Source: Candidatus Zixiibacteriota bacterium
GTDB lineage: Bacteria; Zixibacteria; MSB-5A5; GN15; FEB-12
Direction of reading: 5' to 3'
NCBI GenBank assembly: GCA_024278935.1
Contig: JAJRSF010000007.1
Span: 66,799-130,798 of the forward strand
Length of the DNA stretch: 64,000 bases
Shown here: in pieces, positions 14,431-63,374 of the stretch
Numbering within the stretch: the stretch's first letter is position 1
Layout of the letters: each line of letters opens with the position of its first letter
Notes under the pieces: generated by a model
What the model was told of the DNA's origin: nothing
The model's input: only the letters and a program-made list of their open reading frames with translations
The model's database searches: none
Made by a program: the position numbers and the translations under genes

Positions 14431-15100
14431 GCTTTTACTTTCACTTTATCAAGAATCTGCAATGCAGAATTATACCCATCACCGGCAGAGCTTCCAAGGT
14501 CATCCACGACACTTTTGACTAACGCTTCTGACGCACCAACATTCAACGCACCCAGTATATGAGAATGAAGTTGCCGTACTCTGTTTTCCATTGTCAAAAA
14601 AGCTACAATAGAAAGTTCTCGTGTAATAAGCGGAAGATTTTCTCTCGACAACACTTTTCCATATCCTTCTAAAATCATCCAATGAAATATTTCGGGAGCA
14701 AACTCTAAAACTCTTTTTTTGAGAAGTTCATATTTTTCGTTATATACTTTCCCGCAAACATCTTCTCCCTTTTTATACCATTCAGAAAGAGAATTCTTCG
14801 ATAAAAAATCAGATTCAGGTAAATCATTTTTTCAACTGGGAGAACTTTTTGTAAAACATCTGCCGCCTGAAGCATTCTTGGAAAGCCTAAAAACAGATAC
14901 GACTGCAAAATCACCTCATATAACTGTTCACGGCTTATCCGAAGTTCTAATGCTTTTGCGATAGCATTTTCGGTTATAATAGCATCATCAAAAGTTATAG
15001 CAGCCGAAAAAAGAGCAAGCATACGATCGCTCATATCAGAAGTCGGATTAAATTGAGAGAGAATTGTTTGAAATTGGGCTTTATCGGCTGAGCTGTTCAT
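14427..15100 (-). pseudogene. Carboxymuconolactone decarboxylase (AhpD-like) family protein, split by a frameshift at a poly-A run
   Basis: ORFs 14705-15175 and 14427-14678 join if the A6 run (plus-strand T6 at 14827-14832) is A7. The joined reading is ...VLPVEKNDLPESDFLSKNSLSEWYKKGEDVCGKVYNEKYELLKKRVLEFAPEIFHWMILEGYG... Likely start is MNSSADKAQ at 15100. Confidence 0.6.
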
Positions 15101-15143: not shown

Positions 15144-16328
15144 TTATCTACGTAACTGTTTAACTGTACTTTCAAGCCCTTTAATCTGTTCTTTAAGAAA
15201 CTGTATCTCTTTTAAAATCGAATCAGCCAATAAGTCAGATTGGGTGCCATGAGGTGATTTTGTTTGGGCATGTGCCTTTTCCAGTGTTCCGACCTTTACA
15301 TCAACAGAATAAATAGCATTATGACGCAGGAAATCAAACCCTATTGTTGTCCCGGGTTCTGTTTTTTGTATGAATGTCGCAAATGCTTGAGGATTATCAA
15401 TAGAGAATTTATTCGCTTGAAACAGGAGATCACCTTTTTTAAATCCCGCCAAATACGCAGGCGAATGCATCGCTACTTTTTCGACAATCAAACCATGTGA
15501 AATTTCAATTCTATTTTTTAGAGAGGCTATTGTGCTTTGCTGCATATTAGGCATCATTTGCACTACGATAGGTGGAGATATTTCAATCTCACGGGTCTGC
15601 AAACCAAGATACCCGGCATAACGATTGCCATTTTCTTTGAGGTAACTAACAATTTCAGGTATCTTATAAGCAGGAATCGCTAAACCAACTTCAGACCTGT
15701 CCCCTATTTGAGCCGTAATGACTCCGAGAAGTTTTCCGTTCATTGAAAACAGACCACCACCATGAGAACTTGGTGTAAAAGATGCCGAAAACTGCATCAT
15801 GCCGTCAGGTCTATAGCCGGCACAAATCCCTAATGCCGATGCTGCCCGAACACCATAGGAATTGCCAATCGCTAATATCATCTGTCCGGCACAACCTGTT
15901 TGTGTCTTGACTTGAATCGGACGACCATACGGTTTATTCATTTTCAAAAGAGCTATACCATTTTGATAATCAATTCCAACAACCCGAGCTGAAACAGATT
16001 TGTCATCCAGACGGATTGAAATATTTGAAAATTTCGAGACGGCTTCAGCAGGTGCTATGAACAATCCGGAAGTATCAATAATCAATCCCGTAGATATCAA
16101 CGAATAGACAGCTTCGTTTTGATTGGGACTGCTGTTGCTCGGATAAATTGGTTACGATGCTTCGACAGTCACAATTGAACGTGCCACATCATATACCAGT
16201 TCATTGAGACCTGTCTCTAAATTAATTAAAGCAGAGTCTTGAGCCGAAACAGCGGTCGAAAAAAAGACCGCCAGAAAAAACATTATACACGTTTTTATGA
16301 CGGTCATTTTAGAGAAGAACTTTATCAT
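15144..16328 (-). pseudogene. HtrA/DegP-like protein (trypsin fold + PDZ + C-terminal coiled coil) lacking a recognisable catalytic triad, with an in-frame TAA at 16152-16154
   Basis: The ATG at 16328 overlaps the anti-sigma stop. Signal peptide MIKFFSKMTVIKTCIMFFLAVFFSTAVSA. Reading through gives ...SIVTVEAS*PIYPSN...LISTGLIIDTSG... PDZ-like segment GLIVEKVAMHSPAYLAGFKKGDLL. Confidence 0.6.
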
Positions 16329-23866: not shown

Positions 23867-24982
23867 TTATTCTGAGGATGCGAGGTAGCGGAGGGCGTTG
23901 GATTTGAGTTTTTCTTTATCGAAACCTTTCAAATCAGCTGTCTCTAAAAACTCGATAAACTTCAAGTCTATTTGTCCTATGCTTGTGCGTCCAAACTGCG
24001 GAGTGGACTCATCGACTTTCTCTTTTTCAAACTGGATATTCAACGAATACGATTTTTGTTTAAGTTCAGCAAGCACCGCTGTCGGTAAAGTCTTGAGAGT
24101 TTCTTCTGACACACCCGAAACTTTAAGACGGACAATTTTGTCCGATGATTTTATTTCGGCAAGTTTTTCTTTGATGATAGCAACAAGTTCATCACCGCGT
24201 TTTCCTTTTGCTTCTATAACAGGCATGTCAACCATGACACGGGAATGCACTTTGACAAAGCGTAAATCAAAGTTCTCAAGCTCAACAACGATGAAGCCTT
24301 TTTCGGCATCACGTTCTGATTGCGAAAGCCGTTAGGTTGAACCAGCGTAGTATGATTTTTCGGCAACTTTGCAGTAGTTATGAAAATGCCCCAATGCGGT
24401 GTAATCGAACTGTTCCATCAGTTTGAGCGGAAGTTCCTGCTCGCCCAAATCAGCCATCGAAAACTCGGGCATCCCTGCGGCAACGCCATGCATAATAAGT
24501 ACGTTGTGCTTGTAGTTCGCATCAGGTACGCATTGTGTCAGCTCTTTTTTTTGAATCTCTGTCGTCAAACAATGCGGTAATGCGAAGAGCTTCGTGTCGC
24601 CTATTGTAAAGGTCTCTAAGCCGATACCTGCCGATATATATAGATTGTCGATATGGTCGAAGATATTCAAAGCTGCCCCTATGTGAGGCTGTTTTGGGGC
24701 ATCGTGGTTACCAGAGATGATTACAGTCGGAATTTTGTGAACTTCAGCAAGTCGATGAAGCTGTTCCCCTGCTATGGCAATGATTTTGTTAGTCGGCCTG
24801 ACAACATGGAATATGTCACCGGCATGAATACAGATATCCGGTTTTTCCTCGATAATTTTATTAACCGCCTCGATGAAAGAATTGATGATATCTTCCTGCC
24901 TGAGGGTCAGCCCGCTCTCGCCTCGTTTGGGATGATTCTCGCCTGCCCCAAGATGGGTGTCTGCAATGTGACAAATTTTCAT
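23867..24982 (-). pseudogene. sbcD: SbcD/Mre11-family nuclease, interrupted by an in-frame TAA at 24332-24334
   Basis: ORFs 24332-24982 and 23867-24250 share a frame. Reading through gives ...KSYYAGST*RLSQSERDAEKGFIVVELENF... Phosphoesterase motifs HIADTHLG, GDIFH, GNHD and GHFH are present. Confidence 0.7.
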
Positions 24983-58516: not shown

Positions 58517-59056
58517 CTACTTACGGAACGGCATGCCAAACTCTTCCAACAACTGCCGAGCTTCAGCATCAGAGCCGGCTGTGGTTGCAAAAGTAATGTT
58601 CATACCTCTTATTTTATCAATTTTATCGTATTCAATTTCCGGAAAAATCAATTGTTCTTTGAGACCCATATTAAAATTTCCACGTCCATCAAACGATTTA
58701 GGATTAACACCCTGGAAATCTCTAATACGAGGGATAGCAATATTAATTAAGCGATCCAAAAATTCATACATAGCATCACGACGCAGTGTTACAGAACAAC
58801 CAATACCAACACCTTCACGAAGCTTAAAATTCGAAATCGATTTTTTCGCTTTGTTAATAGAAGGTCTTCTTCCGGTAATTTTAGTTAAATCTCCAACAGC
58901 AGCATCAAGTAGTTTTGAATTCTGGGTAGCTTCACCAACACCGACATTAACCACAATTTTAGTTATTTTCGGAATCTGCATAACTGATGAATACTTATTA
59001 TCTTTCATCATCTTAGGCATGATTTATTTTTCATATTTGTCATGAAGTCTTGTCAT
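58517..59056 (-). CDS. rplE: 50S ribosomal protein L5, interrupted as written by an in-frame TAA at 59024-59026
   Basis: The true N-terminus, [30 protein letters not shown]..., starts at the ATG at 59056. The ORF track only reports the part after the stop (58517-59020). Confidence 0.88.
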
Positions 59057-62543: not shown

Positions 62544-63374
62544 TTAAATTTTCGCTCTACGATCTTGAATCAAATGATCGTTAGATTTACGTTTACTTCT
62601 TGTCTTATACCCTTTAGTAGGTTTACCCCACGGTGTACAAGGATGACGTCCCCCAGAGGAACGACCTTCACCACCACCCATAGGGTGATCAACAGGATTC
62701 ATTGCGACCCCACGAACATTTGGACGAATACCGCGCCATCTAGATGCGCCGGCTTTGCCCCAAATAACGTTCTTGTGATCGACATTAGATACTTGACCGA
62801 TTGTCGCATAACATACAGCAGGGAATGTACGTACTTCTCCTGAAGGCATTTTAAGAGTAACCTTTTTACCTTCTTTGGCAACAACCTGACAAAACGAACC
62901 AGCAGAGCGGGACATTTGCCCACCTTTACCGGGTCTCATTTCAATATTATGAACGTTGGTTCCCAATAGAATTTCTCCTAAAGGCAACGTACAACCAACA
63001 TTTTGTTCAATATTTTCACCAGACAATACAACGTCATTGACGTTTAGACCAACCGGTGCGATAATATATCTTTATTCACCGTCGACGTAATGCAACAGAG
63101 CTATACGTGCTGAACGATTCGGATCGTATTCAATAGAAGCAACACGAGCCGGGATATTAAATTTATTTCTTTTAAAATCAATGATTCGATACATCCGTTT
63201 GTGACCACCACCACGTTGGTACGCAGTGATACGACCTTTATTATTACGACCACCAGATTTCTTAAGCGGACTTAATAAAGATTTTTCCGGTACGGTAGAT
63301 GTAATCTCATCAAACGCCGGAACCGTTCGGAAACGGAGTGTCGGAGTAATCGGACGAAATTTCTTAATTGCCAT
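62544..63374 (-). CDS. rplB: 50S ribosomal protein L2, interrupted as written by an in-frame TAA at 63072-63074
   Basis: ORFs 63072-63374 and 62544-63026 share a frame. Reading through gives ...[30 protein letters not shown]... Total length of 277 codons fits L2. Confidence 0.9.

Follow-up and report, generated by a model that had tools for sequence, protein, structure and literature searches.

The gene for ribosomal protein uL2 (rplB) in this genome carries a TAA codon in the middle of its reading frame, which raises the question of whether L2 is made across the stop, from separate pieces, or from a gene that in the organism has no such stop. The window, that is, the whole 64,000-nucleotide stretch of DNA that was analysed, contains the gene and its parts at the following positions:

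62544..63374, minus strand: rplB (ribosomal protein uL2), 276 codons, with its own terminator TAA at 62544-62546
63072-63074, minus strand: in-frame TAA of rplB, codon 101 of 276, Lys (AAA/AAG) in relatives
63075..63374, minus strand: N-terminal piece of rplB, 100 codons, the form that a gene caller would report
62544..63071, minus strand: in-frame rest of rplB, 175 codons, with the first canonical start at TTG 63026, which opens a 160-aa ORF

Re-reading of the frame and its translation showed that the sequence is exactly as the first-pass annotation had given it, with the minus-strand frame running ...CAT TAC GTC GAC GGT GAA TAA AGA TAT ATT ATC GCA CCG.... The TAA is most probably (probability about 0.9) an error in the consensus sequence of a low-accuracy draft assembly of the MAG type, an origin to which the genome-wide pattern of lesions points. 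An A read as T in the consensus would turn AAA into TAA at codon 101. The organism's real rplB would then almost certainly have AAA (Lys) at this codon and encode a normal full-length L2, with nothing decoded, bypassed or split.

The rplB gene and codon 101 in relatives

Pfam analysis of the read-through translation showed that the Ribosomal_L2_N domain (PF00181) spans residues 42-118 and runs straight over the stop with the complete profile aligned (1-77 of 77), and that the Ribosomal_L2_C domain (PF03947) covers residues 126-250 (profile 2-126 of 126). The stop at codon 101 is located within the RNA-binding domain of L2. The gene has the full-length domain composition of uL2 but not its uninterrupted reading frame. 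The product is 88-94% identical in amino acids to those of four congeners, and the terminator TAA coincides in position with theirs, followed closely by the start of rpsS. Inspection of the neighbouring translations by eye showed ORFs typical of L23 and L4 upstream and of S19, L22 and S3 downstream, placing this single-copy rplB in the ribosomal protein cluster with rpsS directly downstream. The search for a second copy that the first-pass annotation had called for gave one locus each by tblastn and by PF03947 in a genome that is ~95% complete in 68 contigs. The 100-aa and 160-aa fragments of rplB are on record from an NCBI contig that matches this one in length (132,195 bases); therefore, the stop belongs to the public record.

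Lysine, one of the two residues that had been expected at codon 101, is present, within the motif GEKRY, in the rplB products of all 19 relatives examined (L003-L021). The four congeners read GAA AAA AGA, so that the genome under study (G000) differs from them by a single A-to-T change that breaks an A6 run, as had been proposed. A scan of metagenomes with a 23-mer from the rplB flank, comprising a flanking 22-mer and one free base, gave 120 matches, all from other organisms, and AAA was found in all 120 of these rplB contigs. A 32-mer scan of the metagenomes gave no matches. The collections searched held no independent assembly of the species, and exact-protein look-ups returned this contig alone. 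The TAA is absent from all four congeners, and with a Lys codon in 19 of 19 relatives and in 120 of 120 metagenome genes, the stop lacks the conservation among orthologues that is expected of a read-through or recoding site. The earlier statement that no in-frame restart would be useful is also borne out, since the first ATG, GTG or TTG after the stop is the TTG 16 codons downstream, inside Ribosomal_L2_N.

Comparisons of rplB between G000 and the congener G004 showed ratios of synonymous to non-synonymous codon differences of 21:6 in the part before the stop and 53:11 in the part after. The corresponding ratios in the intact pair of G004 and the congener G003 are 26:2 before the stop position and 54:11 after it. 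Decay of rplB as a pseudogene was rejected, because the pattern of codon differences after the stop equals that of the intact congeners.

In-frame stops and deletions in the window and the genome

The rplB stop is one of several lesions in the window, the others being:

59024-59026, minus strand: in-frame TAA at codon 11 of rplE (L5), Glu (GAA/GAG) in congeners
24332-24334, minus strand: in-frame TAA of an sbcD-like gene (…YYAGST*RLSQSER…), GAA in G003
16152-16154, minus strand: in-frame TAA of an HtrA-like gene, between the signal peptide and the protease domain (reading of the frame only)
about 14810..14837, minus strand: frameshift splitting a gene that is a single open frame in G004

Pfam placed Trypsin_2 and PDZ_2 downstream of the TAA in the HtrA-like gene, and the frameshift region contains A7 and T6 runs. 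The rplE stop is a second ribosomal protein lesion, 4 kb from that of rplB. With two stops in about 9 kb, the density of lesions in the ribosomal protein cluster is at least the genome average, which fits a process that is blind to selection.

The rate of lesions was estimated by comparing the coding ORFs with 534 kb of G003 and 288 kb of G004 by tblastn in both directions, in which 408 kb of coding DNA of G000 aligned at the protein level with an identity of at least 70%. This conserved coding DNA contains 26 distinct in-frame stops (14 under a strict filter) and 13 frameshift-like breaks. Scaled up to the whole genome, these counts correspond to about 100-190 stops and about 95 frameshifts. 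Each of the 26 stops is missing from the congener with which it was compared. By type, they are 18 TAA, 5 TGA and 3 TAG. Random substitutions in coding DNA with the codon usage of G000 would produce a stop in 4.6% of cases, with TAA making up 50% of these; the observed share of TAA is 69%, close to the random-substitution mix. The stops take the place of a range of residues (E, K, Q, W, S, L, Y and R) through a range of base changes, and the congener codons at these positions include GAA/GAG, AAA, CAA, TGG, TCA, TTA, TAC and CGA, among others. Opposite the in-frame TAA codons, the congeners have GAA/GAG, AAA, CAA, TCA/TCC/TCG, TAC, GCT and ACA. Nonsense substitutions outnumber frameshifts by about 2:1. 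All seven frameshifts that were aligned at the nucleotide level are one-base deletions in G000 and tied to base runs: five shorten a short run (T3, T4, T5, T8 or AA), and two remove a C that lies within a T run or immediately follows one. The lesions are spread unevenly, with four in-frame stops and one frameshift in the 19 kb compared of contig C15 (21.6 kb) and none in several contigs with 15-19 kb compared.

A further, ab initio scan of G000 used a dicodon coding score trained on the long ORFs of the genome. Candidate stops were those flanked on either side by coding-like sequence of one frame, with no start in the next ten codons, and the best 32 candidates were sent to Pfam with X in place of the stop. 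One Pfam domain aligned across the in-frame stop in 17 of these 32. The proteins concerned include an H+-pyrophosphatase (TAG), a subtilase, a carboxyl transferase, DAO, MacB, two HlyD adaptors, amidase_3, flagellin, RecG (TAG), a multihaem cytochrome (TAG), NIT, 4-alpha-glucanotransferase, ClC and SCO1. Three more stops lie between the domains of single-chain proteins, namely ThrRS (TAG), a histidine kinase and PFOR. Two candidates were discarded as true gene junctions (FabG with ACP, and NadC with BirA), and ten gave no Pfam call. The 20 stops other than that of rplB that break a domain or a single-chain protein consist of 16 TAA and 4 TAG. Three of the TAG sites, in genes that are essential or strongly conserved, are positioned as follows:

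C64:100567, plus strand: in-frame TAG in threonyl-tRNA synthetase (thrS)
C6:17514, plus strand: in-frame TAG in H+-pyrophosphatase
C64:141, plus strand: in-frame TAG in RecG

An in-frame stop in PIG-L (C45:22901) was confirmed against the congeners. No sequence motif shared by the surroundings of the stops, which would be a sign of a systematic error of the methylation type, was seen by eye.

The results show that the stop of rplB belongs to a large set of random lesions, of several kinds, that extends across the genome. Over 40 distinct in-frame stops and 13 frameshift-like breaks are on record for G000, they are independent of one another, and they disregard whether a gene is essential: essential single-copy genes (rplB, rplE and thrS) are struck as often as others. 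An organism whose only rplB carried a nonsense codon, with further ones in rplE and thrS, would not be viable. We infer that the lesions of G000 arose in sequencing or assembly. As random stops and one-base deletions number ~100 or more genome-wide, the TAA of rplB is almost certainly an error. The first-pass annotation was right about the lesion itself, whereas it overlooked the genome-wide pattern, and its suggestion that the stop might be decoded is not supported.

Some features fit less well with an error in the consensus. The lesions of the substitution type correspond to a rate of about 1e-3 substitutions per base, well in excess of the indels. This is atypical of long-read errors, and for contigs of 100-300 kb a consensus of such quality is poor. 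In-frame stops are also present in the congeners (L255:9858 on contig C92 of G004, L268:9774, L247:19074, L244:2228 and L026:7910). Those of G004 affect rpoA (TAA at about codon 21) and an ABC-F ATPase, and those of G003 affect a chemoreceptor signalling domain, a P-II protein and one further gene. The stop rates of the congeners are similar to or below that of G000, and G003 and G004 have one frameshift-like break each. The stops in G003 and G004 are most simply explained by a shared source or pipeline, although a lineage-specific cause could in principle be responsible.

Alternative origins of the rplB stop

The main rival to an error in the consensus takes the broken alleles to be genuine minority alleles. 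The TAA would be present in some of the DNA molecules, as a minority variant, a polyploid copy or damaged or relic DNA, and would have been picked by the assembler, while intact copies supply L2. The place of the stop in the public record, the occurrence of lesions in three congeneric MAGs and the large excess of substitutions over indels, as among real mutations, are in its favour. However, assemblers take the majority path, and a living population is expected to carry nonsense alleles of rplB, rplE and thrS at a vanishingly low frequency only. The one-base deletions that accompany the stops, within base runs or next to them, have a technical appearance, and rplB has no signal of decay. These points make the reading improbable. 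It is highly unlikely that the lesions are real in living cells of this lineage, with the broken alleles sheltered among many genome copies or with unusually leaky termination, so that L2 is still made; the argument for this draws on the stops in essential genes of three congeneric genomes (rplB, rplE and thrS, and rpoA in G004).

Decoding of the TAA into a full-length L2, by a suppressor tRNA, by near-cognate read-through or by a changed code, was the one way in which the first-pass annotation could see the gene as real biology. The frame after the stop indeed continues perfectly and remains conserved, and a tRNA could be absent from an assembly that is ~95% complete. Against this, the suggested search for a suppressor tRNA (ARAGORN, all 68 contigs) found neither a UUA nor a CUA anticodon, and the single tRNA with anticodon UCA is a tRNA-Sec (C38:302596-302690). 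TAA is the commonest terminator, closing 552 of the 876 ORFs of at least 400 codons, and it also terminates rplB itself at a conserved position. Two genes with a PCRF domain have intact open frames of 364 and 366 aa, so both release-factor genes are in order. In-frame TAA codons align with many different residues, TAG, TGA and frameshifts occur beside them, and the TAA of rplB is found in none of the relatives examined. UGA is the codon concerned in every reassignment of a stop codon in bacteria that was known up to a screen of 250,000 genomes in 2021 (PMC8629427). Thus, TAA has kept its role as terminator, and G000 has neither a UUA tRNA in its contigs, nor a single residue to which the stops align, nor a changed release factor. 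A genome-wide change of the code was rejected on terminator usage, the varied residues, the intact release factors and the presence of all three stop types together with frameshifts. A real and decoded stop in rplB would be the first case of UAA recoding in a bacterium; the evidence speaks strongly against it, and we regard decoding as very improbable.

Two TGA codons are likely genuine selenocysteine sites, unrelated to the TAA of rplB in the case of that in G000. This site (C39:33328, plus strand) lies in a TW-TGA-QYC motif of the UxxC type, and the other is a TGA of G003 (L026:8057, minus strand) that aligns with a Cys of G000.

That L2 is made without the stop being read, either as two pieces (100 aa and a product restarted at TTG 63026) or by a hop between two GGT GAA sites as in T4 gene 60, is exceedingly improbable. 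A 160-aa ORF with a TTG start is present, and GGTGAA occurs just before the TAA (codons 99-100) and again 60 nt downstream (codons 119-120; 63015-63080, minus strand), so that the stop directly follows the first copy. However, a restart or a hop would each lose 16-20 residues of Ribosomal_L2_N that are conserved in relatives and near-identical in congeners, for which both routes were rejected; no relative has such an arrangement, and the genome-wide lesions account for the stop without either route. The GGTGAA repeat is judged coincidental, because the codons that would be skipped encode conserved L2 residues.

With the stop of rplB being most probably an error in the consensus, codon 101 almost certainly marks no unusual biology and no special feature of L2. 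The genome, and apparently its congeners, are a source of many false findings of in-frame stops and split genes, and about 3-6% of the genes of G000 may be mis-called by a gene finder. Claims of recoding, pseudogenisation or gene loss made from this genome need support at the level of reads.

Comparison with known systems

The rplB stop resembles the recoded sites of selenocysteine (UGA) and pyrrolysine (UAG) in that the frame continues past an in-frame stop. However, those sites recur in orthologues and have tRNAs dedicated to them, whereas the TAA of rplB is unique to the G000 assembly. Known bacterial reassignments (UGA to Trp, table 4; UGA to Gly, table 25) likewise place in-frame stops in conserved genes. 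There, UGA has lost its role as terminator, is read by a cognate tRNA and stands for one residue, whereas TAA in G000 is the main terminator, has no tRNA that was found in the contigs and replaces varied residues. The likeness to the bypassing of T4 gene 60 lies in a stop that immediately follows a codon with a second copy about 60 nt downstream, but the apparent gap in rplB encodes conserved L2 residues and the arrangement occurs in no relative.

The closest resemblance is to the internal stops and homopolymer frameshifts of draft assemblies or assemblies of uncultured organisms, which annotation pipelines label as 'internal stop' or 'frameshifted' pseudogenes. G000 differs from these in its excess of nonsense over frameshifts, which implies a high rate of substitution errors. 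It shares with them the many independent lesions that strike essential single-copy genes and are not shared with relatives, the one-base deletions associated with base runs, and the broken genes that are free of decay.
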